Shown here: piece after piece, positions 3,457-20,530 of the stretch | Layout of the letters: the number at the start of each line of letters is the position of its first letter | How positions within the stretch are numbered: the stretch's first letter is position 1 | Source of the DNA: Candidatus Saccharimonadota bacterium | Lineage (GTDB): Bacteria; Patescibacteriota; Microgenomatia; UBA1406; GWC2-37-13 | Length of the DNA stretch: 32,000 nucleotides | Direction of reading: 5' to 3' | NCBI GenBank assembly: GCA_016700135.1 | Contig: CP065004.1 | Span: 930,001-962,000 of the forward strand | The notes under the pieces: generated by a model | What the model was told of the DNA's origin: nothing | Database searches by the model: none | What the model saw: only the letters and a program-made list of their open reading frames with translations | Made by a program: the position numbers and the translations under genes

Positions 3457-3470
3457 TGAATAACAGTTGT

Positions 3471-3499
3471 TTAGTAATGAGGGTTTTTCATTATATAAT
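3471..3499 (+). promoter_or_regulatory. Candidate sigma70-type promoter (TTAGTA-17 nt-TATAAT) that would give a leaderless rfbF mRNA
   Basis: TTAGTA at 3471..3476, a 17-nt spacer, and a perfect TATAAT at 3494..3499. The rfbF ATG starts at 3506, exactly 7 nt after the -10 hexamer, which is the expected +1 position. There is no Shine-Dalgarno between them. Confidence 0.35.
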
Positions 3500-3505
3500 A
3501 CCTAT

Positions 3506-4282
3506 ATGAAAACTATTATACTCTGCGGCGGAACGGGAACTCGACTGAAAGAAGAAACTGAGTTTAAACCGAAACCGATGGTTTTCATTGGGAACAAACC
3601 GATCCTCTGGCATATTATGAAAATATATGCAGCAGCAGGATTCAATGAGTTTATTCTTGCGCTCGGATACAAAGCTGACTACATCAAGGATTTTTTTCTC
3701 AATCAGAAGGCATTTACTGCTGACTTTACTCTTCATACGAAAGATCATCAAACTACGTACTACCTGGAAAATCGAAAGGAAATTGACAATTTTACTATTA
3801 CGTTTGTTGATACAGGAATCGACACTCAGCCGGGAGAGCGTGTCCTTCGATGCCAGGATTATATTCCGAAAGAAGATAAATATTTTATGTTGAATTACGG
3901 AGATGGAGTGTCAGATGTAGATGTAAAAAAGATTGTTGATTTTCATAAAAAACAAAAAACTCTAGGGACGATAACAGGTGTCCATCCCAGATCAAAGTTC
4001 GGTGTTGTCAAGGTAAATAATAACGGGATTGTACAGAAATTTGATGAAAAACCAATTACTTCAGAATGGATAAATGCGGGGTTTATGGTTTTCAACCGTG
4101 AAGCTCTGAAGTATTTCCGACCAGGAGAGCTTGAACACCCAGCACTTCGAAGACTTGCACGAGAAAAGAAGTTATCGCTGTATCCTCATGAGGGATTTTG
4201 GTACTGTATGGATACCTATAAGGAAGTTGAAGAGTTAAACGAAATGTGGGAAAGTGATTCTCCCCCGTGGAAAATCTGGTAA
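3506..4282 (+). CDS. rfbF: Glucose-1-phosphate cytidylyltransferase
   Basis: MKTIILCGGTGTRLKEETEFKPKPMVFIGNKPILWHIMKIYAAAGFNEFILALGYKADYIKDFF is the characteristic RfbF/DdhA N-terminus. Length from this ATG (258 aa) fits the family. The track ORF starts at an upstream TTG (3467), which I consider unlikely. Confidence 0.85.
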   Translation: MKTIILCGGTGTRLKEETEFKPKPMVFIGNKPILWHIMKIYAAAGFNEFILALGYKADYIKDFFLNQKAFTADFTLHTKDHQTTYYLENRKEIDNFTITFVDTGIDTQPGERVLRCQDYIPKEDKYFMLNYGDGVSDVDVKKIVDFHKKQKTLGTITGVHPRSKFGVVKVNNNGIVQKFDEKPITSEWINAGFMVFNREALKYFRPGELEHPALRRLAREKKLSLYPHEGFWYCMDTYKEVEELNEMWESDSPPWKIW

Positions 4283-4286
4283 AACT

Positions 4287-5246
4287 ATGAACACACTAAA
4301 AGGTAAAAAAATACTGGTCACAGGCGGCACGGGTTTTGTCGGATCACATCTGGTGAAAGCTCTTATCGAACAGGGAGCCCATGTTGTGACCACTTTTCTT
4401 CAACTTGATCCGCTCTCCTATTTCATGACGGAAGAACTTGATAAAAAAACAGTGATGGAGCGCATTGATCTTGTGGATTTTGATCGTGTATTTGATCTTG
4501 TCACGAAGCATGAAGTTGAATATATTTTTCATCTTGCAGCGCAGCCCTTGGTTGATGTCGCATATTACAATCCCCGCCGCACTCTTGAGTCCAATATCAA
4601 CGGAACTATAAATATTCTGGAAAGTGCCAGGCTTTATCCGAAAGTAAAAGGAATTCTTGTTGCTTCATCTGATAAGGCATACGGTAAACACGGAGAGATC
4701 AAATACAAAGAAACTGATGCTCTCAAAGGTGATCATCCGTATGAGGTGTCAAAGTCCGCTGCAGATCTCATCTGCACATCATATGCAAAGACATATGATC
4801 TTCCGGTTGTCATAACACGTTTCGGAAATATTTACGGTGAGGGCGATTTGAATTTTTCACGAATTATCCCCGGGATTATGCGTTCACTTATCACAAAAGA
4901 AACACTTGAGCTTCGAAGTGACGGTACGTTTGTCCGAGATTACCTGTATGTCAAAGATGTCGTGGATGGCTATATCCGTCTTGCTGAGAATATAGAAAAC
5001 GCAAAAGGAAAAGCCTATAATTTCGGTTCGGATGATACTCTTTCAGTATTGGAATTGATAGATACGATAGAAAAGAGCCTAAAAACGAAAATTTCTTATG
5101 ATATTCTGAATACTGCCAAGAATGAGATCCCCTATCAATCTCTTGATTATTCAAAGATAAGAAAGGAATTCAACTGGAAACCAGAATATAGCGTAAAGAA
5201 TACCGCACAATCTATCAAGAAGTGGTATGTCGGGGTATTCGGTTAA
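4287..5246 (+). CDS. rfbG: CDP-glucose 4,6-dehydratase-like extended SDR
   Basis: GKKILVTGGTGFVGSHL Rossmann motif, IFHLAAQPLVDVAYYNPRRTLESNINGT (AAQPLV block typical of RfbG/DdhB), SSDKAYG, and the YEVSK catalytic YxxxK. Starts 5 nt after the rfbF stop. Confidence 0.65.
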   Translation: MNTLKGKKILVTGGTGFVGSHLVKALIEQGAHVVTTFLQLDPLSYFMTEELDKKTVMERIDLVDFDRVFDLVTKHEVEYIFHLAAQPLVDVAYYNPRRTLESNINGTINILESARLYPKVKGILVASSDKAYGKHGEIKYKETDALKGDHPYEVSKSAADLICTSYAKTYDLPVVITRFGNIYGEGDLNFSRIIPGIMRSLITKETLELRSDGTFVRDYLYVKDVVDGYIRLAENIENAKGKAYNFGSDDTLSVLELIDTIEKSLKTKISYDILNTAKNEIPYQSLDYSKIRKEFNWKPEYSVKNTAQSIKKWYVGVFG

Positions 5247-6406
5247 GCGTGTTTTACTGATGGCTCTCTGCTTTTCTTGGATGATTTTTTCGATTTCTGC
5301 TTTTCTTCTTCCGGTGCGGACAGTTCAATTCCCCGTTCATAAATGCTCTGCTTAAGATCTTCATTATAGGCATATGGACTATCAATATCATCAATAAATA
5401 TGGGCTGGTTCTTTTTTATTGGATTTCTTAGCACTTCTCCGTCCATGAGTTCCCGACAGGAAATCTGACCCTTCAAAAGCGGTATTGCCATATATACATC
5501 TTTATCTGTCAGGACATGTCCTTCCGGCAGGTTTTTCTTTGCATAAACACCTCGAACCAGCTGGTCAAGATACGTTGTTTCTTTATCTGGAGGGGTTCTT
5601 TTTATATCTGCTGATCCTCCACACATTGCACGAGCCTGATGAAATGATTTAAACCAAGTATCAATCTGATGAGGTAATGAGCAGTAAGGCGAGACAGGGA
5701 TACCGTCTTTCTCAATATCAATATGACGTTCCCAGGTACGGGCACCTTTCGCGTATGAAAGAAGCATGGATGAATACCAGTCCGTGTATTCGTGTGTTGA
5801 AAATCCTATCACATGCTCTGGATATCTTTTTTTCAAAAAATCAACTTGGTTCAGTTCTAATTCATTATTTTCCGATGGATAAATTGAAACACAGTGATTT
5901 ATAGCAAGAGGAATATTTCTATTTTCAAAAAACGTGACCAGATCGTCCATATCTTTCAATGATGATCCTCCGGTTGAAACAATAACAGGTTTCTTTGTTG
6001 CAGCAATTTTCTCAATCAACACCCAATCGTTGATATCAGAACTTGCAATTTTGATAATCGGCAGATCAAGTTTGACACAAAGGTCTACTGATTTCTCATC
6101 GAAAGGTGTAGCAGTTGGGATACAACCATTTTTTCGTATTGCATTGACGAGCACTGCATACTCTTCGTCTTTAAGGACTGTTGCTAAGGTCTTTTTTATG
6201 TACCGTACATCCGTACGGTTACGGTAATCTTTATGAATAAAAGTCTCAACATCCCTGAACTGCAACTTGATTGCAGCACGAACATTATTAAATCGGACAA
6301 TTTTTGCAAAATCGCTGATGATTTTTAGTCCACGGTTTACATCGCCCCAGTGATTGTTTGCTAATTCTAGGACAAAAAGGTCTTCAAAAATTTGGTTATT
6401 TATCAT
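5243..6406 (-). CDS. NeuB/SpsE/PseI-family PEP-dependent sugar aldolase (nonulosonic-acid-synthase-like) with SAF domain and a Lys-rich C-terminal tail
   Basis: LFVLELANNHWGDVNRGLKIISDFAKI...AIKLQFRD matches the NeuB (I/E)xxNHxGD...K(F/L)Q N-terminus. A TIM-barrel-length core is followed by a SAF-like segment (GHVLTDKDVYMAIP..GQISCREL..GEVLRNPIKKNQPI). The tail is EEEKQKSKKSSKKSREPSVKHA. I prefer the ATG at 6406; the track uses a GTG at 6442. Confidence 0.6.
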   Translation of the reverse strand: MINNQIFEDLFVLELANNHWGDVNRGLKIISDFAKIVRFNNVRAAIKLQFRDVETFIHKDYRNRTDVRYIKKTLATVLKDEEYAVLVNAIRKNGCIPTATPFDEKSVDLCVKLDLPIIKIASSDINDWVLIEKIAATKKPVIVSTGGSSLKDMDDLVTFFENRNIPLAINHCVSIYPSENNELELNQVDFLKKRYPEHVIGFSTHEYTDWYSSMLLSYAKGARTWERHIDIEKDGIPVSPYCSLPHQIDTWFKSFHQARAMCGGSADIKRTPPDKETTYLDQLVRGVYAKKNLPEGHVLTDKDVYMAIPLLKGQISCRELMDGEVLRNPIKKNQPIFIDDIDSPYAYNEDLKQSIYERGIELSAPEEEKQKSKKSSKKSREPSVKHA

Positions 6407-6527
6407 AAAGAGTTTAGATTTTAAATCGTGCTTATAGTACACCTAAAACAAGATGAAGTCAATACGACAGATAGGAAACAGTATCTGGTGTATAATTGTT
6501 ACACGTTATGAGTTCCAGCTTCATTAT

Positions 6528-7580
6528 ATGGCGGTAATACAGAAATGTCCGGTGTGTGAAAGTCCGGATACTTCCCTACTTTATACACAAAAATTTGCAG
6601 AACATTTTAAGCATGATATCACTGCCTGTAATAATTGTCATTTTATCTTTGTCAGTAATGCTCCAAGCCAAAAATACTATGACAAGTATTATAAGGTCAT
6701 GTCAAAGTATGAGCACGGGAGGGATGAAGACCTTCATAACAAATACTTCTCAATAGCCAAAAAATTTACACATAAAGACTCATCAATTCTTGATATAGGC
6801 TGTTCGACCGGCAATTTACTTCATATTTACAAGCAAGAAGGATACAGAAGTTTGTTGGGAGTCGATCCTTCACCTCGATGCAAATCTGTCGCAAAAAAGG
6901 AGTTCAACATTCCGGTGGAAACTGCCACAATCTCGTCATTCAAACCAGGAAAAAAGTTCCAGTATGTGATACTTGCAATGGTTTTGGAGCATTTGAAGGA
7001 TGTACGTGCAAACGTCGCAAAACTCGAAAAACTTGTAGACGAAAACGGCTATTTGTTTATTAGTGTACCGAATGCTGCAAGGTTTCATGAAGCGGTAGAA
7101 GAACCTTACTATGAGTTTTCTACTGAACATATCAACTTTTTCTCTCCAACACACCTGTTTTTACTAATGAAGAACTTTACTTGTGTTCATTTGGAAACAG
7201 ATGAGCGGGTAATATATTCAGTCTGGCAGAAAGGAAACAATCTGAAAAAAACAATGAGTTCATATATCTCCTTGTCAAAAAAACGGTTTCAGGATGTTAA
7301 AAAAACAATTGATAGTCTTCCACCTGAGATTCTAGTTTGGGGATCAGGAGCCTTGACACAGAAACTATTAAATTCTACCAATCTAGGTAAGAAGGTGTAT
7401 AAGTTTATTGACAGAAACAAACATCTTATCGGCTCAAAACTGAATAATGTAGATATTATTGCACCTTCCGATATTCATAAGTATGATTATCCGATCCTCA
7501 TATCCTCTTTCAGATTTCGAGATGAGATTCAAAAAGAAATTAAAGATCTCAAACTAAAAAATAAAGTTATAACGTTTTAG
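6528..7580 (+). CDS. Class I SAM-dependent methyltransferase with N-terminal Cys4 zinc ribbon and a C-terminal domain like that of NDP-hexose C-methyltransferases
   Basis: CPVCES...CNNCHF zinc ribbon. ILDIGCSTGNLL (motif I) ... LLGVDPS ... YVILAMVLEHL. C-terminal ILVWGSGALTQKLLNSTNLGKKVYKFIDRNKHLIGSKLNNVDIIAP resembles the C-methyltransferase C-terminal domain. I prefer the ATG at 6528 (MAVIQKCPVCE); the track start at 6453 adds 25 non-conserved residues. Confidence 0.6.
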   Translation: MAVIQKCPVCESPDTSLLYTQKFAEHFKHDITACNNCHFIFVSNAPSQKYYDKYYKVMSKYEHGRDEDLHNKYFSIAKKFTHKDSSILDIGCSTGNLLHIYKQEGYRSLLGVDPSPRCKSVAKKEFNIPVETATISSFKPGKKFQYVILAMVLEHLKDVRANVAKLEKLVDENGYLFISVPNAARFHEAVEEPYYEFSTEHINFFSPTHLFLLMKNFTCVHLETDERVIYSVWQKGNNLKKTMSSYISLSKKRFQDVKKTIDSLPPEILVWGSGALTQKLLNSTNLGKKVYKFIDRNKHLIGSKLNNVDIIAPSDIHKYDYPILISSFRFRDEIQKEIKDLKLKNKVITF

Positions 7581-7581
7581 A

Positions 7582-8643
7582 ATGAATAGAACACTCACAG
7601 TTTCATCGACTTCAGGTAGCTATCCCGTCACTTTTGTTGATGACTTGAGAGACGGACTTAAGAAAACCGGGCAGAAGAACGCACATTTACTGCTCGATAG
7701 TCACATAGGCAAAATGTATAAGAAGATTGATAGCACTGCATTCCTTTCAGTTTATGAATTTGACGCGAGGGAATCAAACAAAAATCTCACTGAAGTTCAA
7801 AACTATGCACAGTTTCTAATAAAAAACGGTATTAAAAAGAGCCATCAGGTTGTAGTGATTGGCGGTGGTCTTATCCAGGATATCGGTTCGTTTACTGCGC
7901 ATATTCTGCTTCGGGGTATAAACTGGGTTTTTATACCAACCACACTTTTGAGCGTTGCAGACAGCTGCATCGGTTCAAAATCCGGCATAAATGTCGGAGC
8001 ATATAAAAATCAAGTAGGTGCATTTCACCCACCAAAAGAGATTTATATTTATCATGGTTTTCTTAAAACGCTTCCGGCGCAGGAAATACAAAACGGTATT
8101 GGGGAGATATTAAAACATGCTCTAATCAAAGGCGGTAGTTCCTATCAAAGCATTACCGAGAACTTATCTCATATTCAGCAGGACAAAGTGAAAGGTGAGC
8201 AGGTCATCTATGAAAGTCTTTTGATAAAAAAAGAAATTGTTGAAGAAGATGAGTTTGAAAAGGATATTCGTCGTTTGCTGAATTACGGACATTCATTCGG
8301 ACACGCATTGGAAGGTTATACAAAAAATAAAATACCGCATGGGATCGGGGTGAGTATTGGTATGGATATTGCAAATTTTGTATCTATGAAAAGAAAGCTG
8401 ATAACTCAAGAGCAGTTTGATGAAATAAGCCGTGTCCTAAGAACGTATATTCCCTACGATCAAATTCAGATTGATGATATCGACCTGTACCTAAAGTTTC
8501 TTTCCCGTGATAAGAAAATCATTGGAGATAAACTCTATGCTATTCTGTGTGAAGGCATAGGAACAATTAAAATCACGCCTATCAAAATCGATAAGGAGCT
8601 TGGAGATCAGATTACGGAATATTGTCAGTCTTTCAAAAGATAA
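7582..8643 (+). CDS. 3-dehydroquinate synthase superfamily enzyme (sugar-phosphate cyclase; DHQS/EEVS/DDGS-like)
   Basis: VVVIGGGLIQDIGSFTAHILLRGINWVFIPTTLLSVADSCIGSKSGINVGAYKNQVGAFHPPKEIYI..LKTLPAQEIQNGIGEILKHALI and KKEIVEEDEFEKDIRRLLNYGHSFGHALE...HGIGVSIGM align without gaps to the motifs I recall from E. coli AroB: GGGVVGDLTGF, PTTLLSQVDSSVGGKT, GKNMIGAF, AEVIKYGII, LNLGHTFGHAIE. Starts 1 nt after the methyltransferase stop. Confidence 0.8.
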   Translation: MNRTLTVSSTSGSYPVTFVDDLRDGLKKTGQKNAHLLLDSHIGKMYKKIDSTAFLSVYEFDARESNKNLTEVQNYAQFLIKNGIKKSHQVVVIGGGLIQDIGSFTAHILLRGINWVFIPTTLLSVADSCIGSKSGINVGAYKNQVGAFHPPKEIYIYHGFLKTLPAQEIQNGIGEILKHALIKGGSSYQSITENLSHIQQDKVKGEQVIYESLLIKKEIVEEDEFEKDIRRLLNYGHSFGHALEGYTKNKIPHGIGVSIGMDIANFVSMKRKLITQEQFDEISRVLRTYIPYDQIQIDDIDLYLKFLSRDKKIIGDKLYAILCEGIGTIKITPIKIDKELGDQITEYCQSFKR

Positions 8644-8648
8644 CTATT

Positions 8649-10061
8649 ATGTCACAGTTTGTAGGTATAGATATTGGAGCAAGCTTCGTGAAAGGGGCAG
8701 TTTTTGATCTACAGACAGGATCAATTCACAGTATTGTTAAGTATCCTTCTCCTGAGAATAATCTCACTCATTCCGGCAGTGCACCATTACGCTTTGAAAT
8801 CGACGGCAAAGAGTATGTAGCTCTTGCGAAAAAAATAATAGATACATTCCTTTCCAGACATGACAATATCGAAGGAATTGTTTTTTCAACTCAAATGCAT
8901 GGAATGATTCTTGTTGATTCTGAGAATACTCCGCTTTCCCCTTTTATCGGTTGGCAGGATGAACGGCTGCTTGAAACAAATCTGAAAACCGGGGTAACAT
9001 GGATGGATGAAGTCCATAATCGACTGATAGACATTGATACTTTGCAAACTGGAATAACGTTACGGTCAGGGCTGATGGGGAGTACTCTTTTCTGGTTGCA
9101 GCAGAATAATAAACTTATTCCAACAAGCAAAGCACTTTTCCTTGCAGATTTTGTAGCAGTTTCACTGACATCAGGGAAAGCATGCGTAGACGTAACGAAT
9201 GCCTGTGGCTCAGGATTATTTAATACTAAAAAAGGAAGTTGGGATAAAATAATATGTCGGGCACTCCACATCCCTCTTTCAGTGCTTCCCGATGTTGTAC
9301 CGACGGGAACGTCGATTGGAGCTCTTAATCTAAACGGGAAACAGATTCCTGTATATGTTTCAGTCGGTGATTTACAAGCAGCGGTTTTAGGCAGCTTAGT
9401 TAAACCAAAAACTGAATTATCAATCAATATCGGGACAGGTTCACAGATTTCGATTATTCATGACAGATTTCAATCCGGAAATTATGATATCCGTTCATTT
9501 TTTGATAACTCATATCTGTATACGGTAACCCATCTGCCAGCAGGACGTGCACTGAATGTAATTATTGCACTAATTAAAAACTTTAGTAAGTCTGTTCTGA
9601 AGAAAAATATAAATGATACTGAAATTTGGGGGAATTTACTTTCGTCATTGCATAAAAAGAAGAATAGTGAAGGACTGAAAGCAAATATTTCCTTTTTTAA
9701 GAATAATGCAACAAGCATGCAAACTGGAGCTTTTTCTTCGATCACTGAGCATAATTTTACCGTTGAAAACATTTTCTATGCAGCAATAACAAGTATGTCT
9801 CACAATTACTACCAGGCATTTCAGAGACTACCGGGACATGAAACCATTGATCAGATAATTTGCTCTGGTGGAGTTATACGTCAAATTAAAGAGCTTCAGG
9901 ATTGCATCAGGAAAACATTCCAAAAACCTCTCCAAATGGCTCAGTATGAAGAGGAAACATTGGTAGGACTCTTTATAATTGCCAGGTACTGCCGGCACGA
10001 CTTTGATACAATAAAGGCGGCTTCAGATTCCGTTAAAAATCAACCTATTCGATTTGCATAA
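8649..10061 (+). CDS. FGGY-family carbohydrate kinase (motif pattern closest to the sedoheptulokinase-type branch)
   Basis: FVGIDIGASFVKGAVF (phosphate-1), FSTQMHGMILVD, IGWQDERL, VSVGDLQAAVLGS, SINIGTGSQIS, and ICSGGVIRQ near the C-terminus. The ATG at 8649 is 5 nt after the cyclase stop; the track start at 8622 is a TTG inside the cyclase gene. Confidence 0.65.
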   Translation: MSQFVGIDIGASFVKGAVFDLQTGSIHSIVKYPSPENNLTHSGSAPLRFEIDGKEYVALAKKIIDTFLSRHDNIEGIVFSTQMHGMILVDSENTPLSPFIGWQDERLLETNLKTGVTWMDEVHNRLIDIDTLQTGITLRSGLMGSTLFWLQQNNKLIPTSKALFLADFVAVSLTSGKACVDVTNACGSGLFNTKKGSWDKIICRALHIPLSVLPDVVPTGTSIGALNLNGKQIPVYVSVGDLQAAVLGSLVKPKTELSINIGTGSQISIIHDRFQSGNYDIRSFFDNSYLYTVTHLPAGRALNVIIALIKNFSKSVLKKNINDTEIWGNLLSSLHKKKNSEGLKANISFFKNNATSMQTGAFSSITEHNFTVENIFYAAITSMSHNYYQAFQRLPGHETIDQIICSGGVIRQIKELQDCIRKTFQKPLQMAQYEEETLVGLFIIARYCRHDFDTIKAASDSVKNQPIRFA

Positions 10062-10062
10062 T

Positions 10063-11910
10063 ATGACAAAACCACCCAAGAAAACAGTGAAATTGAGCGA
10101 TTATCTGTTTGATGAATTATACAAACGTGGTGTTACTCATATTTTCCTCCTGTCAGGAGGAGGTAATATCCACCTGATAGACTCTGTTGGTAAAAGTAAA
10201 ATCAAATATGTCTGCAATCATCATGAACAGGCAAGTGCCACATCCGCAGAAGGATATGCCAGGGCTAAAGGTGATATCGGTGTATGTCTTGTGACAACCG
10301 GTCCCGGCGGAACAAACGCTATCACCGGTGCTCTCGGGTCATGGCTTGATTCAATCCCGATGCTTGTCATCTCAGGGCAGGTGAAGCGGGAGCTAATCGG
10401 TGCCGGTACTGAGCTTGGACTCCGTCAGTACGGTCCCCAGGAAATAAACATTATTGATATGGTCAAACCGGTTACAAAATATGCGGTGACGGTGATGGAT
10501 CCGAATGACATTAAGTATCATCTTGATAAAGCTATATATTTAGCTAAAGATGGCAGGCAAGGACCTGTTTGGCTTGACATCCCACTTGATATACAGGGTG
10601 CCCAAATCGACACTTCAAGTTTAAAGACTTTTAATACTTCAGAAGTAAAGAAACCGTATCAGACGGATAAAGCAAAACTTAAAAAACTGGTGTCAGAAAC
10701 CCTTGATAAGCTGAGAAGTGCAAATCGCCCGGTTTTTTACGCGGGAAACGGGATACGACTTGCCGGTGCAGCCGAGCAGTTTCGGGAGCTAGTCAATCTT
10801 CTGAAAATTCCTGTTCTCATGAGCTATGTCGGATACGACCTTCTGCCTACAGATCATCCTTATTACTTCGGGAGAGCTCATGCGCTCGGTCAGCGTGCTG
10901 CCAACTTTATTGTCCAAAACTGTGATGTATTGCTCTCAGTCGGTGCAAGAATGGATATTCTGACCACAGGTTTCACTTATCAGGCATATGCCCGAGAGGC
11001 ATATAAAATCATGGTTGATGTTGATAAGAATGAGATCAATAAACCGTCACTTTCAATTGATATGCCGATTCAGTATGATGCAAAGGAATTTATTGAAGAA
11101 ATGATTCGTCAGATAAAAGCGAAACCTCTCAGACTTGATATCCAGAACTGGCTGGATTACGGTCGGAATCTCAATCAAAAATATCCGAATATTCAGCAGA
11201 AATTCTGGAAGGAAAAAAATTACGTCAATCCATACTGCTTTATTGAAACTATTGCAAAATATTTCAATAAAGATGAAACTATTGTTGTTTCCAACGGCGT
11301 TGGTCCCCTAAACTGTTCTTATCAGGCGCTTCCTATTAAAGGCACACAACGGGTCATCCTTAACCTAGGTTGTGCACAAATGGGATATGGGTTACCGGCC
11401 GCAATAGGGGCTGCTTTTGCATATGATAAAAAGAAACGTATTATTTGTTTTGAAGGCGACGGTAGTCTTCAGCTGAATATTCATGAGCTTGAAGTCATGA
11501 AACATCACAACCTACCGATCAAGCTATTTGTTTACAGTAACGACGGATATCTTTCCATTCGTAATACACAGAAAGGATTATTTAAGGGTAACTATACTGC
11601 TACAGACTCTGGCAGTGGAGTCAGTTGTCCCGATTTCGTAAAAGTAGGAAAAGCATATGGCATACCATCAATAAGAATTCACAACCACTCTGACATGGAT
11701 CGAAAGATCAAAGAAGTGCTTAATTCGGAAGGACCGATCCTTTGTGACCTGAATGCAGTTCGTGATCTTACCCTTACTCCGAAATTACAAACGAAGCAAA
11801 CTCCGGACGGGAAATTCATCTCTCCGACCCTTGAAGACATGGCACCTTTTTTGAGTGATGAAGAATTACGAGCAAATATGCTGATACCATTATGGGAAGA
11901 AAAAAACTGA
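10063..11910 (+). CDS. Thiamine-diphosphate-dependent enzyme of the acetolactate synthase family (YerE-like branched-sugar synthase candidate; IolD-like is an alternative)
   Basis: N-terminal Pyr domain (HIFLLSGGGNIHLIDS..NHHEQASATSAEGYARAKG..VCLVTTGPGGTNAITGALGSWLDSIPMLVISGQV), a central domain, and a C-terminal ThDP motif GDGSLQLNIHELEVMKHHNLPIKLFVYSNDGY. The ATG at 10063 is 1 nt after the kinase stop. Confidence 0.7.
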   Translation: MTKPPKKTVKLSDYLFDELYKRGVTHIFLLSGGGNIHLIDSVGKSKIKYVCNHHEQASATSAEGYARAKGDIGVCLVTTGPGGTNAITGALGSWLDSIPMLVISGQVKRELIGAGTELGLRQYGPQEINIIDMVKPVTKYAVTVMDPNDIKYHLDKAIYLAKDGRQGPVWLDIPLDIQGAQIDTSSLKTFNTSEVKKPYQTDKAKLKKLVSETLDKLRSANRPVFYAGNGIRLAGAAEQFRELVNLLKIPVLMSYVGYDLLPTDHPYYFGRAHALGQRAANFIVQNCDVLLSVGARMDILTTGFTYQAYAREAYKIMVDVDKNEINKPSLSIDMPIQYDAKEFIEEMIRQIKAKPLRLDIQNWLDYGRNLNQKYPNIQQKFWKEKNYVNPYCFIETIAKYFNKDETIVVSNGVGPLNCSYQALPIKGTQRVILNLGCAQMGYGLPAAIGAAFAYDKKKRIICFEGDGSLQLNIHELEVMKHHNLPIKLFVYSNDGYLSIRNTQKGLFKGNYTATDSGSGVSCPDFVKVGKAYGIPSIRIHNHSDMDRKIKEVLNSEGPILCDLNAVRDLTLTPKLQTKQTPDGKFISPTLEDMAPFLSDEELRANMLIPLWEEKN

Positions 11911-12779
11911 CGGTATTGCTAACCGGATCCGGCGGATATATCGGGAAGAATGTCCTTACACAACTGTCTGACTCCTATAACTTTCTAGCACCCAGAAGTA
12001 AAGAACTTGATCTGACGGAAGATACAGCCGTATCAAAGTTTTTTCAAGAACATTCAATTGATGTGGTTATACATGGGGCAGTCGTAGGAGGAAGCAGGAA
12101 GGAAGAAGCGCAGAAAGATGCCCTGAAAACAAATCTTCGAATATTTATGAACATCATGCGTAACGCTGGCAGGTACTCAAAACTAGTACATCTGGGATCA
12201 GGAGCAGAATATGACAAGAGATTGCCTATGGTAGACATTTCCGAAGATGAATTTGATCGGAGCATCCCGAATGACGATTATGGCTTTTATAAATACTTAT
12301 GTTCAAAATATGTTACAAATACTCCAAATAGTGTAAATTTGCGAATCTTCGGAATATTCGGTAAATATGAGGATTATAGACTGAGATTTATTTCGAATGC
12401 AATATGTCGTAATATTCTTGGCTTGCCTATTACAATAAACCAAAACGTAGTATTTGATTATGTATATGTCAATGATTTTGTAAAGATAATTGATTATTTT
12501 ATTCAGAATGACACAAAGGAAAAACAATATAATATTGCTACAGGAAAAAAAATTGACTTGGCAACCATTGCTGGGATCATAAACGAGATCTCAGGTAAAC
12601 CATCTGAGATAATCATTAAAAATCCCGGGATGAACAATGAATATACGGCAAATGCAGATAAACTAAAGAAGGAGTTGGGAAATTTCTCGTTCACTCCTTT
12701 CAAGAAATCTGTTTCTGAATTATATATCTGGTACAGAGAGCATATGAATGAGTTAACAATTACAAAGGAAATCTTATGA
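11892..12779 (+). CDS. NAD(P)-dependent sugar epimerase/reductase (extended SDR)
   Basis: VLLTGSGGYIGKNV glycine-rich loop and a YLCSK YxxxK motif. 295 aa. Overlaps the ThDP enzyme gene by 19 nt. Confidence 0.6.
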   Translation: MGRKKLTVLLTGSGGYIGKNVLTQLSDSYNFLAPRSKELDLTEDTAVSKFFQEHSIDVVIHGAVVGGSRKEEAQKDALKTNLRIFMNIMRNAGRYSKLVHLGSGAEYDKRLPMVDISEDEFDRSIPNDDYGFYKYLCSKYVTNTPNSVNLRIFGIFGKYEDYRLRFISNAICRNILGLPITINQNVVFDYVYVNDFVKIIDYFIQNDTKEKQYNIATGKKIDLATIAGIINEISGKPSEIIIKNPGMNNEYTANADKLKKELGNFSFTPFKKSVSELYIWYREHMNELTITKEIL

Positions 12780-13441
12780 ATAGGACGGTATTTATTACGG
12801 GGGGTGCACGGGGGATTGGTAAAACGTTAGTTGACCACCTTTCTTCGCTTGGATATGAAGTTGTCGCTCCGTCAAGAGAAGAGATGGACCTATCTGACTC
12901 TGAATCAATTGCAAATTATTTGCAGAATCACTCTGATTTGAAAGTGGATATCCTTATAAATAATGCCGGCATTAATAAACCTGAATGGATTGAGGAAATG
13001 ACCGATAAAAATATTGAGGACACGATCCGTATCAATCTGGAATCCCCTATTCGATTACTTCGGGGACTGATCGGTCATATGAAAGAAAAAAAATGGGGAC
13101 GGATCGTCAATATCAGTTCGGCTTTTGGAATTGTAGCCCGCGGGAAACAGGTTTTGTATTGTTCGACAAAACACGGGATAAACGGTATGACTAAAGCTTT
13201 GGCCTTAGAACTTGCTCCCTATAATATTTTAGTTAACTCAGTTTGTCCCGGATTTGCCGAAACAGAGATGGTACTTAGAAATCCTAAAGAAAAAATCGCA
13301 TCGATTGAAGCAGATATTCCTCTCGGGCGTCTGGTTAAACCTGAAGAAATCGCTCATCTCGTCGAGTTTTTAATATCTGAACAAAACACCTATATGACGG
13401 GAGCTGAAGTAGTCATTGACGGTGGATTTAGTGTAAAATAG
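12776..13441 (+). CDS. Classical short-chain dehydrogenase/reductase (FabG-like ketoreductase)
   Basis: VFITGGARGIGKTL, NNAGI, NISS, and YCSTK (YxxxK). ATGA start/stop overlap with the preceding gene. Confidence 0.7.
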   Translation: MNRTVFITGGARGIGKTLVDHLSSLGYEVVAPSREEMDLSDSESIANYLQNHSDLKVDILINNAGINKPEWIEEMTDKNIEDTIRINLESPIRLLRGLIGHMKEKKWGRIVNISSAFGIVARGKQVLYCSTKHGINGMTKALALELAPYNILVNSVCPGFAETEMVLRNPKEKIASIEADIPLGRLVKPEEIAHLVEFLISEQNTYMTGAEVVIDGGFSVK

Positions 13442-13458
13442 GGAGTTTTCCAGTCTAT

Positions 13459-14712
13459 ATGAATAAAGCAAATTTCAACTCAGGTGAAACCTACATTCCC
13501 GTCTCAGGAAAAGTGTATGATCATAAAGAGATTGATAATGCTATAGAAGCCTCAAAAGACGCATGGTGGACAGAAGGGCGTTTTGTCAAGGAATTCGAAA
13601 GAAAATTCAGAAATTTCATGGGACGTCGTTATGTTTCATTGGTGAATTCAGGATCCTCTGCCAATCTTATAGCTCTCTACTCTCTTACCTCATCAGTATT
13701 CGGCAAACGGGCTTTGAAAAAAGGTGATGAATTTATCACGGCAGCAGTAGGTTTCCCCACAACAGTCAATCCGGGTATTCAATTCGGCCTTACTCCGGTA
13801 TTTGTTGATGTTGATTTGAAGACTCTCAATATGGATGCGGATCAGATTGAAAAAGCAATTACACCACGGACAAAGCTTATTATGATGGCTCATACTCTGG
13901 GGATTCCGTTTGACCTTGAAAAAGTCCAATATCTCGCTAAAAAGCATGACCTTTGGCTTATTGAAGACAGCTGTGACGCTTTAGGGTCTCGTTATGACGG
14001 TAAGTTTGTCGGAACATTCGGAGATATCGCTACATACAGTTTCTATCCTGCCCATCAAATGACTATGGGTGAAGGAGGCGCGATTATCACAGACAATCCG
14101 CTCATCCACCGATCGATTCGGCAATTTCGGGATTGGGGTCGGGACTGCTGGTGTGATACTGGGCAGGACAATACCTGCGGAAAACGCTTTGGTTGGCAGC
14201 TTGGAGATCTTCCGTTCGGGTATGATCACAAATATATTTACTCTCAGATCGGTTTTAATGTAAAGCTCACCGATTTTCAGGCAGCAATCGGGGTCGCTCA
14301 GATCGATAAAGTTCCCGGATTTATTGAAGCAAGAAAAGAAAATTATAAAAAGCTACATGCCTTTTTCAGCAACTATCCTGAGTATTTTCAACTCATTGAA
14401 CTTTCAGGAAAAGAAGATCCGTGCTGGTTTGGATTTCCTGTTATTGTGAAAGAAGATGCTCCGTTTACGCGAAATGAACTTACACACTACCTGGAGGATA
14501 ATAAGATCGGGACACGAAATGTATTTGCAGGGAATCTGTTGAGACATCCGGCTTATCTAAACTTAAAAAAGAAACGGGTGGTCGGCAAAATCAAAAACGC
14601 TGATGTCGTCATGAAACAGGCATTCTGGCTCGGCGTCTGGCCGGGGATAAAAGAACAACAAGTAACATATATCTTAAGGACGTTACAAACTTTTATTAAG
14701 CGTCACCAATGA
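13459..14712 (+). CDS. rfbH: CDP-6-deoxy-L-threo-D-glycero-4-hexulose 3-dehydrase (E1, PMP- and [2Fe-2S]-dependent; DegT/DnrJ/EryC1 fold)
   Basis: RfbH-type N-terminus (YIPVSGKVYDHKEIDNAIEASKDAWWTEGRF). SFYPAHQMTMGEGG has His and no Lys at the Schiff-base position. The Cys pattern EDSC-(57 aa)-CWC-(7 aa)-C reproduces the C-X57-C-X1-C-X7-C cluster motif reported for Yersinia E1; I counted it by hand. Confidence 0.85.
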   Translation: MNKANFNSGETYIPVSGKVYDHKEIDNAIEASKDAWWTEGRFVKEFERKFRNFMGRRYVSLVNSGSSANLIALYSLTSSVFGKRALKKGDEFITAAVGFPTTVNPGIQFGLTPVFVDVDLKTLNMDADQIEKAITPRTKLIMMAHTLGIPFDLEKVQYLAKKHDLWLIEDSCDALGSRYDGKFVGTFGDIATYSFYPAHQMTMGEGGAIITDNPLIHRSIRQFRDWGRDCWCDTGQDNTCGKRFGWQLGDLPFGYDHKYIYSQIGFNVKLTDFQAAIGVAQIDKVPGFIEARKENYKKLHAFFSNYPEYFQLIELSGKEDPCWFGFPVIVKEDAPFTRNELTHYLEDNKIGTRNVFAGNLLRHPAYLNLKKKRVVGKIKNADVVMKQAFWLGVWPGIKEQQVTYILRTLQTFIKRHQ

Positions 14713-15668
14713 GGATTGATAAAAATCGTGTTATTGCAATCCTTGTTTTAATACTGCTTGGAACACTTCTCTACTATATACAAAATTTAAATAATAAGCA
14801 GATAAGCACAGTTTCTGTTGCTCGCAAAGAAATGATAGAAAAAGGTGAATTATTCAGTGATAAGTATATGGAAAGTTCACCTTTTGTATGGAAAGGAAAA
14901 CTCTATTACCTTATATCGGACAGAAACGATGCTGAGCAAAAACATAGTTTAGTAATTTATGATCATGAAAAAAGAGAAAAAATCTCACCGCATTTCGGCG
15001 ACCAATTGAGTCTTGCAAGTGCTTTTGTAGACGGAGATACTCTTTATATTTACGGTACGAAAGACTGGACAGTATTCGGGAAATCAGAAGTATTTGAAAT
15101 CAAAACCAAGAATTTGAAAGATTTTACTGGTCCGCGAAGTGTTTTTAAAGCAAATGAAAATATGCGGTTTTTTAATACGTCAGTTACTAAAGATGAAGAT
15201 AATGGTGTGTATGTTATGGCACTTGAGACTGATGAAAAAGACAGAACACCTTTTTCGATCCGATTTCTTCGCTCGTGGACTCTGGATGAGTGGCAGATGG
15301 ACGAGTATGCAGTTTATGGAAATGATACCTATGTTGCCTGCCCGACCATTAGACATCTTGACGGCACGTACTATTTGCTTTTAGGAGATGAACATTTTTA
15401 TGATCCCAATTGCCCGGAGTGCAAGCAATATATTACCCGTATTGCAAAATCAACGGACCTTATGACCTGGGAAACGAGTGCAATACCTTTCCTCCTGCCT
15501 GATCCGGACGGATCGGAAGGTCTAAGTGCTGCAGATGTAGACTTGGCTGAGTATGAAGATAAAACGATTATTCACTATTCTATTAGCGATCAGTCGACAT
15601 GGGGAGATCTCAAGTCAGCAACATTTAATGGTTCTATGATTGAACTATTTTCTCTTTTCTTTGAGTAA
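14709..15668 (+). CDS. Membrane-anchored extracytoplasmic protein, possible beta-propeller (function unknown)
   Basis: 319 aa with an N-terminal TM (VIAILVLILLGTLLYYI) and a repetitive beta-strand-like pattern. One Asp-box-like KSTDLMTWE. ATGA overlap with rfbH. The 3' end overlaps the convergent acetyltransferase gene by 24 nt. Confidence 0.4.
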   Translation: MRIDKNRVIAILVLILLGTLLYYIQNLNNKQISTVSVARKEMIEKGELFSDKYMESSPFVWKGKLYYLISDRNDAEQKHSLVIYDHEKREKISPHFGDQLSLASAFVDGDTLYIYGTKDWTVFGKSEVFEIKTKNLKDFTGPRSVFKANENMRFFNTSVTKDEDNGVYVMALETDEKDRTPFSIRFLRSWTLDEWQMDEYAVYGNDTYVACPTIRHLDGTYYLLLGDEHFYDPNCPECKQYITRIAKSTDLMTWETSAIPFLLPDPDGSEGLSAADVDLAEYEDKTIIHYSISDQSTWGDLKSATFNGSMIELFSLFFE

Positions 15669-19349: not shown

Positions 19350-20530
19350 TTATTCACCAAAAACTTCAATAATGGTTTCGATCTCTTCTTTTGTCAGTTC
19401 AGGGTTGTTCCCGAAATAGAGGCCGTTCATATTGATGAGTTTGGCATTTGATTCTCCCAGAATATCCGAATACTTGGGCATGTATTTATGGAAAAATGCC
19501 TGTCTAGTCATATCTCCTCCTACAATCGGTCGGATCTCAATTTTTCCTTCACATTTCTCAATCAGTCGATCTCTTATTTTTTGTGTTTTACAGATCACAG
19601 GTACTGCAAAATTGGACAAAGTCTCAATTTGATTGTATCTGAGAGGATAATATTTCTTGGTATTTTTAAAGATTTTTGATGCGATTTTTTGAAAGTCTTC
19701 TGTCTTGTTGAGACAATAGTATCTAAGTATTGAATCTGGTCATTACCGATAAATCCGTTTATCTCAGTCGGTCTAAGATTGTAGCCGAGATCATAAAATG
19801 TGTATTTTGAATAAAAAGTTGATTCCACTCCGTATTGCTTTCTAAGCTGGTTTTGTTTTGTTTCAGGAAGATTTCTGTCCCAACCGTGAGCACGCACGAG
19901 CTTCAGCATCGTTGCTACTTCTTCATCGTCAGTACAGACTGCTCCGCCTTCAATTGTAGACATATGATGACCTACAAAGAAGGAAAACGTACTGGCAAGC
20001 CCGTAATTGCCAAGTAATTTGCCTTTATAAACCGTTCCCAGTGATTCACAGTTATCTTCAATAAGAATAATTTTTCTTTCATCGCAAATTTTTTTTATTT
20101 TGTCGATATCATCACAAAAACCGAGCAGATTGGTGATAAAAAGAATTTTTATCGGATGCCACTTCAGCACTTCCAATAGTTTGGAGCTTGAGACATTCAG
20201 CGTATCCAGTTCAACATCAAGAGGGACGGCATCCAGTCCAAGCTGGATTAGCGGCATGGGGTTGGTCGCCCAGGTAAGTGCCGAGAATCCGGCATTCTCA
20301 CCCTTCTTAATCCGTCCCAGATTCATGAGCGTTTGAATGATGGCGAGATTTGCGGAGCTTCCGCTATTGAAAAACACACAATGCTTCCTTCCCTGATATT
20401 TCGCAAAGTTCTTTTCGAATTTTTCGCACTCCGGCCCAATACTAAGCTGCTTCGCGTTCATTATAAAGTTGCATATTTTCTTATTCGTTTCTTCTTCATT
20501 ATAAAAAGTAGATTTGATAAGTTTGATCAT
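19350..20530 (-). pseudogene. ColD-like PMP-dependent GDP-4-keto-6-deoxy-D-mannose 3-dehydratase (DegT family), split by a 1-nt frameshift in an A6/T6 run
   Basis: The 311-aa ORF (19595..20530) carries the N-terminal and catalytic parts (LIKSTFYNEEE..., NSGSSANL, STFSFFVGHHMSTIEGG with His-His instead of Lys). The 89-aa ORF (19350..19619) carries the family C-terminus (SNFAVPVICK...IEIRPIVGGDM...). The second frame is open from 19739. One extra A in the run at 19685..19690 gives a continuous ...TRQKTFKKIASKIFKNTKKYYPLRYNQIETLSNFAVPVI... of ~393 aa. Confidence 0.7.

Follow-up and report, generated by a model that had tools for sequence, protein, structure and literature searches.

Acyl-branched sugars are assembled by pathways such as those for erwiniose (ErwI/J/E/F), caryophyllose (MMAR_2331-2333), gastriose (MygI/E/F) and a sugar of R. 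palustris CGA009, and a unifying aldolase plus ThDP scheme for their formation is set out by Steitz et al., 2022 (PMC9306805). Each of these clusters contains a single aldol-forming enzyme, which in the known pathways is a pyruvate aldolase (BphI/DmpG or HpcH). The remaining genes direct the formation of CDP-4-keto-3,6-dideoxyglucose and encode a ThDP enzyme of the YerE type, a reductase that uses NAD(P)H and a methyltransferase. Here we describe a locus within a 32,000-nucleotide stretch of DNA (the window) that shares all of these components and likewise has one aldol-forming enzyme, but in which the aldol step falls to a PEP-dependent NeuB-family synthase. The locus also has an additional AroB-like/SDR/FGGY module, and the published scheme (PMC9306805) mentions neither this module nor a NeuB-family synthase.

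Several other described systems resemble individual parts of the locus. The yersiniose A pathway (RfbF/G/H, YerE, YerF) uses the same acceptor pathway, but YerE takes pyruvate and needs no aldolase, whereas the window encodes a NeuB-like protein. The best structural relative of the window ThDP enzyme is JanthE (PDB 8RPH), which accepts longer donors and carries a CDG motif where the window enzyme has GDG. The NeuB/PseI/LegI/SpsE synthases (N. meningitidis 1XUU) and C. violaceum 3G8R have the same TIM barrel plus SAF architecture and the same PEP/Mn residues, but compared with these synthases the window protein has its ManNAc-binding residues replaced and is not accompanied by NeuA or NeuC. Finally, the first two shikimate steps, catalysed by DAHP synthase and DHQS, also combine PEP with an aldose phosphate, as proposed for the window synthase, where an NAD-assisted phosphate elimination may follow as well; however, the window synthase belongs to another family and lies in a glycan context, its DHQS-like partner is optional and the aro operon is separate. 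The C4 stereochemistry of NeuB-type enzymes is opposite to that of DAHP synthase.

Results

The NeuB-like protein retains its catalytic residues and lacks the N-acetyl-binding arginine

The neuB-like open reading frame (5243-6406, minus strand) is intact, starts with ATG at 6406 and encodes 387 amino acids, with alignments to homologues beginning at residue 1. Pfam places a NeuB domain at residues 45-263 (131 bits) and a SAF domain at residues 285-341, and the motifs ELANNHWGD and KLQF are both present. The AlphaFold model (pLDDT 89) has 3G8R, 1XUU and 8H2C as top Foldseek matches, and its sequence identity is ~25% with 1XUU and ~35% with 3G8R, an uncharacterised protein. A domain-swapped homodimer was predicted with a score of 0.83 (best control 0.00), passing a mark reached by 20/30 solved pairs and 1/23 single chains, and the runs showed at least 61% contact agreement with pLDDT values of 82 or more; the pass may be due to resemblance to NeuB dimers that have been solved. 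It is the only NeuB-family gene in the whole genome, and it is accessory, with a clade member present in 0/13 congeners and 3/60 relatives.

The preliminary description had singled out a Lys/Ser-rich C-terminal tail as unusual. The tail is there (27 residues, EEEKQKSKKSSKKSREPSVKHA, 5246-5326, minus strand), but it is disordered (pLDDT <50 at residues 367-387), ordinary for the lineage and unconserved, being missing in most clade members outside the Patescibacteria in our tail survey, and we dropped it as a functional feature.

We compared active-site positions using the residue roles assigned to NeuB-type synthases (PMC11339185, PMC8208679). The PEP/metal residues of N. meningitidis NeuB (E25, K53, Q55, T110, K129, S132, S154, S213, H215, E234 and H236) correspond to E14, K47, Q49, T100, K119, S122, S144, S203, H205, E226 and H228 in the window protein, and they are invariant in all 126 clade members. 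Because the catalytic residues are invariant, we do not regard the gene as decayed. By contrast, the equivalents of the ManNAc-binding residues N74, D247, F288 and R314 are replaced in the clade. In the window protein N74, D247 and R314, which bind the N-acetylhexosamine, have become R64, S239 and I308; the R314 position is I/V throughout the clade, and the N-acetyl-binding arginine is missing from every member that covers it. The substrate loop has invariant arginines, and R51, R68, K/R72, R285 and R318 vary little or not at all within the clade.

The NeuB-like protein lies outside nonulosonate pathways

The source genome is of the Patescibacteria type and complete (98.5%) in a single contig of 1.45 Mb. 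NeuA, NeuC and PseG, previously noted to be missing from the window, were found neither there nor in this genome, in which the best PF02348 match covers 32 residues and is under the cut-off. The preliminary description had likewise found no PseB/PseC set; the dehydratase in the window is RfbG-like and the DegT-family protein is RfbH, rather than PseB and PseC. NeuA was found near 0/65 cellular and 1/67 viral clade members compared with 17/20 canonical-NeuB controls, using an HMM seeded partly from the control loci, although Pfam independently recovered many of the same genes; a ThDP gene occurred in 1/20 controls. The protein scores far under the equivalog cut-offs for PseI (TIGR03586, 119 bits against 340) and NeuB_NnaB (TIGR03569, 114 against 400), and in a quick tree a long, well-supported branch sets its clade apart from canonical synthases. 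Phylogenetic placement and substrate-pocket residues agree that the NeuB-like protein is outside nonulosonate pathways.

The locus probably encodes an acyl-branched sugar pathway with NeuB in the aldolase slot

The neuB-like gene adjoins rfbF and rfbG tail to tail, with the rfbG stop codon overlapping its own. The RfbF-like glucose-1-phosphate cytidylyltransferase (3467-4282, plus strand; TIGR02623 266 bits, short of the 300-bit cut-off) and the RfbG-like CDP-glucose 4,6-dehydratase (4254-5246, plus strand; TIGR02622 best match) both have conserved frames and match their same-genus copies at 94% and 88%, respectively. On the other side, a divergent control region of 121 nt (6407-6527), close to the ~120 nt first reported, carries promoter-like sites on both strands, namely a sigma70-like site at 6462-6434 (minus strand) and TATAAT at 6491-6496 (plus strand).

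The divergent operon, all on the plus strand, opens with a SAM-dependent methyltransferase (6528-7580, ATG at 6528), which probably serves the O-methylation of a branched sugar and is also common in loci without a DHQS-like gene. There follow an AroB/DHQS-like sugar-phosphate phospholyase (7582-8643; TIGR04425-like, 373 bits against 400), which is an optional module, and a divergent FGGY-family kinase (8622-10061). Beyond the methyltransferase, cyclase and kinase genes named in the preliminary description, the operon continues with a YerE/JanthE-like ThDP carboligase (10054-11910; GDGS motif), an extended-SDR (epimerase-family) reductase (11892-12779), a classical SDR (12776-13441) and RfbH (E1), the CDP-4-keto-6-deoxyglucose 3-dehydrase (13459-14712; conserved frame, NF011936 645 bits, cut-off 423, 94% to the same-genus copy). 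Among PDB entries the ThDP enzyme matches JanthE 8RPH (E 5.5e-131) ahead of 5AHK (E 2e-73) and, more weakly, plant and bacterial AHAS (below the E 1e-68 level); the housekeeping AHAS is encoded separately at C1:1390674.

The window therefore holds the rfbF/G/H genes, the YerE-like ThDP enzyme and the reductases of an acyl-branched cluster. The pyruvate aldolase associated with branches longer than C2 is replaced by the NeuB-like gene in its slot, and for this reason we consider the cluster a variant. An HpcH-type aldolase had no match in the genome, no DmpG-type gene and no HAD or other phosphatase were found in the window, and the genome encodes transketolase and transaldolase.

The constant partner is a ThDP carboligase rather than a cyclase

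Among loci with full flanks (39 cellular, 52 viral), a ThDP enzyme lies within 10 kb of the NeuB clade member in 38/39 cellular and 52/52 viral cases, usually directly adjoining it, and rfbF and rfbH are present in 29/39 and 31/39 cellular loci. A DHQS-like gene occurs in 8/39 cellular and 29/52 viral loci, so that the coupling of this clade to a cyclase is not obligate. Where it does occur it is always accompanied by the classical SDR (8/8 and 29/29), and the FGGY kinase is found only in its company (0/31 cellular and 0/23 viral loci without it). A phosphatase (HAD or other) is detectable in 15/39 cellular loci, and FGGY and HAD occur together in L017, L243 and L244. The constant partner of the clade is thus the ThDP carboligase together with the CDP-4-keto-3,6-dideoxyglucose genes, not the cyclase to which it had been linked. 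Similarly, the gene opposite neuB across the divergent gap varies between ThDP, HAD, DHQS-like and methyltransferase genes, and the shared promoter region is therefore not specific to a cyclase operon as had been suggested.

Cassette swaps point in the same direction. In a same-genus genome (G403), rfbF-rfbG and rfbH are retained at 85-88% nucleotide identity and the segment equivalent to window positions ~5201-13457 is swapped for a cupin-fused NeuB, a methyltransferase, a ThDP enzyme and a reductase, with no DHQS and no FGGY. In two loci (L238, L240) the gene order is ThDP-aldolase-SDR-DHQS-GT2, with an HpcH/citrate-lyase aldolase taking the place of NeuB, and in L043 NeuB occupies the aldolase position of this same order. 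This aldolase belongs to the family of MMAR_2331 (PMC9306805). L221 has HpcH, PEP carboxylase and transaldolase beside a ThDP enzyme that falls within the clade of the window enzyme and shares 61% identity with it, L242 has a transketolase among its neighbours, and L002 combines NeuB and ThDP with an ErwI/ErwJ-type pair and a second ThDP enzyme. A small reverse co-occurrence test (L147, L220-222, L238-240), for which the DHQS-like metagenome scan gave 3 loci, also found the DHQS-like gene with HpcH in place of NeuB. No match turned up in collections of plasmids or cultured phages at E 1e-40 and 1e-20.

On the ThDP tree the presence of DHQS, SDR and FGGY can be explained with 8, 10 and 5 changes, respectively, but the NeuB tree requires 16, 19 and 13; control labels showed no bias toward the ThDP tree. 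This tracking is confounded by linkage, since the DHQS-like gene is closer to ThDP than to NeuB in 25/35 loci.

Discussion

From the genes present and their co-occurrence, the swapped cassettes, the residue pattern and the fold, we believe that the NeuB-like enzyme probably makes the donor for the ThDP enzyme. RfbF, RfbG and RfbH would provide CDP-4-keto-3,6-dideoxyglucose, while the NeuB-like protein would join PEP to a short aldose, probably one bearing a terminal phosphate, and so form a 3-deoxy-2-ulosonate phosphate. Condensation of PEP with an aldose to a 3-deoxy-2-ulosonate had been proposed before and most likely holds, outside nonulosonate pathways and without the constant tie to a cyclase. 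The ThDP enzyme would decarboxylate the keto acid and attach the remainder at C4 of the CDP-keto sugar. The branch ketone would then be reduced by the extended SDR in a YerF/ErwF-type step, and decoration by the methyltransferase would yield a C12 sugar resembling caryophyllose, destined for a surface glycan. Our best guess for the aldose, which can be deduced from neighbours in two loci only (transaldolase in L221, transketolase in L242), is D-erythrose-4-P, in which case the product would be 3-deoxy-D-ribo-heptulosonate 7-P, the C4 epimer of DAHP. NeuB-type facial selectivity on this aldose would yield the ribo configuration, as in the caryophyllose branch. The unit from which that branch is made has the digitoxose (ribo) configuration (PMC7821131). 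We hold this specific route from erythrose 4-phosphate to a caryophyllose-type sugar only tentatively, as one that may well prove wrong in its details. In most loci the phosphate of the ulosonate would simply be taken off, whereas in the window the optional DHQS-like/SDR pair would most likely eliminate the terminal phosphate and reduce the resulting methyl ketone, giving a 3,7-dideoxy-heptulosonate.

The catalytic set of the DHQS-like protein (R111, D127, K133, N143, E175, K178, K216, E224, R230, N234, H237, H241, H253 and K311) is invariant and shared with the genome's own AroB, so that the residues for metal, NAD, phosphate and carboxylate have all been retained, and its best PDB matches are true DHQSs, ahead of EEVS, DOIS and DDGS. 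Because these are the residues with which DHQS binds a DAHP-like acid, the protein may act on the NeuB product, as was first suggested. The enolpyranose intermediate of DHQS cyclises spontaneously, and this together with the retained residues means that elimination without cyclisation is not the default. The NeuB product might then be phosphorylated by the FGGY kinase, truly cyclised and reduced by the SDR to a cyclitol unit, a reading to which the name 'cyclizing' of TIGR04425, the restriction of FGGY to loci with DHQS and the existence of carbocyclic LPS sugars with unknown pathways, such as bradyrhizose (PMC4743980), lend some weight. We nevertheless consider it unlikely: with the DHQS-like gene missing from 31/39 cellular loci and the ThDP enzyme present in 38/39, it cannot be what the clade does in general, and no cyclitol nucleotidyltransferase is present. 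In the variant in which the free acid is cyclised, the product would no longer be a 2-keto acid donor for the ThDP enzyme, and in that in which the ring closes only after ligation by the ThDP enzyme, so that the carbocyclic branch is C-linked, the retained carboxylate-binding residues speak against action after decarboxylation. A shikimate-like ring-closing arm with inverted C4, made up of the NeuB-like, FGGY, DHQS-like and SDR proteins, whose product the ThDP enzyme joins to the CDP-keto sugar to give an undescribed carbocycle-bearing branched surface sugar across many phyla and freshwater-type phages, appears slightly less likely still. Bradyrhizose and caryose were rejected as products, as DHQS-type ring closure on a 3-deoxy-ulosonate branch would not account for their CH2 and tertiary-alcohol positions.

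A free ulosonic acid of the Kdn, Kdo or Dha type, activated and transferred apart from the ThDP branch, would fit the cupin-fused sister group, members of which lie beside NeuA in L118, L120, L121 and L122, and the loss of R314 together with E134D, as in 9-phosphate synthases (PMC8208679); yet neither the complete genome nor the surroundings of 65/65 cellular members contain a CMP-ulosonate synthetase, and the near-universal ThDP adjacency would go unexplained, which makes this reading improbable. Even less credible is an ordinary Neu5Ac/Leg/Pse synthase with partners elsewhere, or a decaying relic of one; databases do label the clade 'N-acetylneuraminate synthase' or 'SpsE', but the missing partners, low equivalog scores, long supported branch, absent N-acetyl-binding arginine and invariant catalytic residues all count against it. 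The same very low probability applies to the NeuB-like and DHQS-like proteins standing in for DAHP synthase and AroB in aromatic amino acid synthesis. DAHPS and KDO8PS are structurally related to NeuB, and a Pfam search of the genome gave no DAHP synthase I above the cut-off. This absence proved false, since a separate aroC-aroD-aroE-aroK-aroA-aroB-pheA-tyrA operon is headed by a divergent DAHPS-I-like ORF; with an aro operon of its own the genome has no need of such a replacement, and the neuB-like gene is accessory and lies in a glycan locus. Moreover, NeuB stereochemistry would give the C4 epimer that is wrong for the shikimate route.

Most likely, then, the pathway type is known and a NeuB-like aldol enzyme within it is undescribed. 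In the accessible literature nothing relevant linked NeuB to YerE, acetolactate synthase, dehydroquinate synthase or TIGR04425, and no sugar structure was tied to a NeuB-containing locus. At least ~8,000 sequence clusters match the NeuB-like protein at E <=1e-60, including the cupin-fused sister group, and they are routinely annotated as N-acetylneuraminate synthase or SpsE. If the NeuB-like enzyme does make the ThDP donor, these mislabelled clusters inflate counts of nonulosonate producers and would in fact be markers of a PEP-driven way of making long-branched sugars. The published aldolase plus ThDP scheme would gain a new donor-making family, and a source would be suggested for the terminal methyl of caryophyllose-type branches. 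In addition, the group of the structural-genomics protein 3G8R would acquire a function, and biocatalysis an epi-DAHP synthase.

Genomic context of the neuB-like gene

The neuB-like gene (window 5243-6406, reverse strand) is intact and encodes a 387-aa protein with Pfam NeuB and SAF domains. Its structural model (pLDDT 89) finds its best fold matches among NeuB-family proteins, its score lies far under the PseI and NeuB cut-offs, and its nearest named homologues are patescibacterial. The preliminary description had noted that the usual nonulosonic acid partners are absent from the window, and this absence extends to the complete genome (a single 1.45-Mb contig, 98.5% complete), in which our search found no NeuA, NeuC, PseG or second NeuB. 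The divergent region separating the gene from the methyltransferase gene, put at ~120 nt, measures 121 nt. The gene order is rfbF, rfbG, the reverse-oriented neuB-like gene, methyltransferase, AroB-like (DHQS-like) gene, FGGY kinase, ThDP enzyme, extended SDR, SDR and rfbH, and it is the four genes past the kinase, left out of the earlier account, that carry the explanation.

The stop codons of rfbG and neuB overlap on TTAA (5243-5246), a convergent layout that recurs in the close homologues L003, L004, L241, L243, L244 and L252. A weak GH43-like ORF (14709-15668) is coupled to rfbH; a same-genus genome has it at 92% identity in the part compared, which places it in the conserved frame. A second DegT-family gene (19350-20530), apparently split into ORFs of 311 and 89 aa, neighbours GT10, GT11 and fcl.

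A separate clade accompanied by a ThDP enzyme

We collected 65 cellular loci from many phyla (about 55-83% identity) and 67 viral contigs (52-64%). A quick tree places the sampled members in a single clade (SH-aLRT 99), adjoined by cupin-fused 3G8R-like proteins and well away from canonical NeuB and PseI. None of the 65 cellular members and one of the 67 viral members has NeuA nearby, compared with 17 of 20 canonical NeuB controls from the same phylum; of these 20 controls, only one neighbours a ThDP enzyme. Partner genes were counted in loci flanked by 5 kb or more on each side (39 cellular, 52 viral); the loci are not statistically independent, so the counts carry no p-value. Nearly all contain a ThDP enzyme (38/39 cellular, 52/52 viral), usually right next to the neuB-like gene, and rfbF and rfbH accompany 29 and 31 of the 39 cellular loci. 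The DHQS-like gene, whose coupling to the NeuB-like enzyme had been proposed, is found in just 8/39 and 29/52, always alongside a classical SDR, and FGGY is confined to loci that hold it.

The NeuB-ThDP cassette lies on 67 IMG/VR viral contigs (L150-L216), 34 of them with SDR and DHQS-like genes, and in sampled contigs is flanked by phage-type genes (UvsX, DnaB-like helicase, clamp loader, RNR, PhoH); cultured phages gave no match. Viral FGGY-like ORFs (L196:5936-6883 and 21 similar) are cut to about 315 aa and missed by Pfam, retain the N-terminal Asp motif and stand beside the DHQS-like gene.

Within the cupin-fused group, L117, L119, L250 and L251 lie beside ThDP/rfbH and L118, L120, L121 and L122 beside NeuA, so this group may serve two pathways. 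In L052 (13931-18087) and L060, a second ThDP enzyme is immediately preceded by a second, more canonical NeuB (TIGR03569, 324 bits, below cut-off), and NeuA is absent from the vicinity; NeuB may have been recruited independently here to make the donor. In the NeuB tree, the 'Gammaproteobacteria'-titled contigs L002, L004 and L005 fall together with a Levybacteria sequence and the window, and they have a Patescibacteria-type gene arrangement; their record titles may be wrong.

The Lys/Ser-rich C-terminal tail, previously thought unusual, is disordered in the model at residues 367-387. Of the 119 closest homologues, 106 carry tails of at least 15 residues and 65 contain at least five lysines; the tails share no sequence. 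Members from other phyla mostly stop at a conserved RGL, and the tail is dispensable.

Active site and dimer model

Residue roles were transferred from the N. meningitidis enzyme (PMC11339185, PMC8208679) to 126 members. The PEP and metal ligands are invariant in all 126; R51, R68, K/R72, R285 and R318 show no or almost no variation, and the ManNAc contacts N74, D247, F288 and R314 are replaced (R64, S239, Q282 and I308 in the window). R64, conserved only among cellular members, lies with R68 and K72 on the beta2-alpha2 loop, which in the human enzyme favours phosphorylated substrate. From these residues we infer that the synthase is active and takes an aldose that lacks an acetamido group and is probably phosphorylated. 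The modelled dimer resembles that of NeuB, and in it SAF residues 305-309 sit on the partner's loop 55-61 (score 0.83 versus 0.00 for the best control; contact agreement at least 61%, pLDDT at least 82). The score mark is reached by 20/30 solved pairs and 1/23 single chains, and the prediction may reflect memory of solved NeuB dimers.

Natural replacements of the cassette

Two stretches of the window, 3485-5200 and 13458-15135, are 85-88% identical at the nucleotide level in the same-genus genome G403 (locus L250). Between these flanks G403 carries a cupin-fused NeuB, sulfation genes, a methyltransferase, a different ThDP enzyme and a reductase, and lacks DHQS and kinase. The comparison marks out about 5201-13457 as an exchangeable side-chain cassette; a NeuB-family enzyme, methyltransferase, ThDP enzyme and reductase are its constant parts. 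The swapped version suggests a sulfated branched sugar; L250:6715-10080 encodes an inositol-monophosphatase/CysQ-family protein, ATP-sulfurylase/APS kinase and sulfotransferase.

In ThDP-aldolase-SDR-DHQS-GT2 cassettes, an HpcH/citrate-lyase aldolase takes the NeuB position, and L043 has the identical order with NeuB in the aldolase place. MMAR_2331, of the HpcH family, is the proposed caryophyllose aldolase (PMC9306805). At L221 (6748-11070, genome G106) the HpcH aldolase is accompanied by an archaeal-type PEP carboxylase and a transaldolase; together these seem to bypass the PEP aldolase in two steps and to provide erythrose-4-phosphate as well. The L221 ThDP enzyme shares 61% identity with that of the window and falls within the NeuB-partnered ThDP enzymes. 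L002 pairs NeuB and ThDP alongside an ErwI/ErwJ-type pair with its own ThDP enzyme, a layout of one aldol enzyme per carboligase. One viral contig (L178:8262-14731) holds an HpcH aldolase and a NeuB-like gene in a single cassette.

Role of the DHQS-like module

The preliminary description envisaged a route that mirrors the first two shikimate steps and ends in DHQS-like cyclisation. The likeness to the shikimate pathway is purely chemical. A separate aro operon (C1:1392199-1401199) is present in the genome, with a divergent DAHPS-I-like ORF and a true AroB that shares 31% identity with the window's AroB-like protein, and the NeuB clade is patchily distributed among relatives (0/13 congeners, 3/60 overall). 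That operon holds the full shikimate/chorismate set with pheA, tyrA and adjoining ilv/leu genes, unusual in a Patescibacteria-type genome; its DAHP-synthase-like ORF (C1:1400162-1401199) is so divergent that it scores 20 bits on PF00793.

The window's DHQS-like protein keeps the full DHQS residue set, carboxylate binders included, and resembles DHQS more closely than it does EEVS, DOIS or DDGS; its substrate is therefore probably free heptulosonate 7-phosphate, in agreement with that part of the earlier route. Ring closure, the other part, would take away the keto acid, and we consider it about half as likely as phosphate elimination followed by SDR reduction, which would yield a 3,7-dideoxy-heptulosonate matching the donor type proposed for caryophyllose. 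The module tracks the carboligase: on the ThDP tree versus the NeuB tree, presence changes 8 versus 16 times for DHQS-like, 10 versus 19 for SDR and 5 versus 13 for FGGY. Each half of the ThDP alignment gives the same result, the average for shuffled labels is 22-28 changes, and the control labels HAD, MT and GT11 show no bias toward the ThDP tree. The pattern fits a module that alters the donor seen by the ThDP enzyme, with gene linkage as a confound.

A proposed NeuB-family donor synthase for branched sugars

In published pathways, the hydroxylated 2-keto acid comes from an aldolase; a YerE-like enzyme then removes its carboxyl group and joins the remainder to C4 of CDP-4-keto-3,6-dideoxyglucose, after which a reductase completes the branch (PMC9306805, PMC12247030). 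JanthE, a YerE-like enzyme, is the nearest relative of the window's ThDP enzyme, and the NeuB product would be a 3-deoxy-2-keto acid, which is of the right donor class. Erwiniose, caryophyllose and gastriose have a CH2 beside the branch carbinol, as a 3-deoxy NeuB donor would yield. At C4, NeuB-type enzymes give the configuration opposite to that set by DAHP and KDO8P synthases, and the product from E4P would accordingly be a D-ribo heptulosonate. The branch of caryophyllose has the ribo (digitoxose) configuration (PMC7821131). Transketolase and transaldolase are encoded in the genome and also inside two related cassettes; E4P as the aldose is a guess. In the accessible literature, two key surveys being outside reach, we found no description of a NeuB-family donor synthase in branched-sugar pathways. 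The pathway type is already known, and the proposed NeuB-family donor synthase would be its new element.
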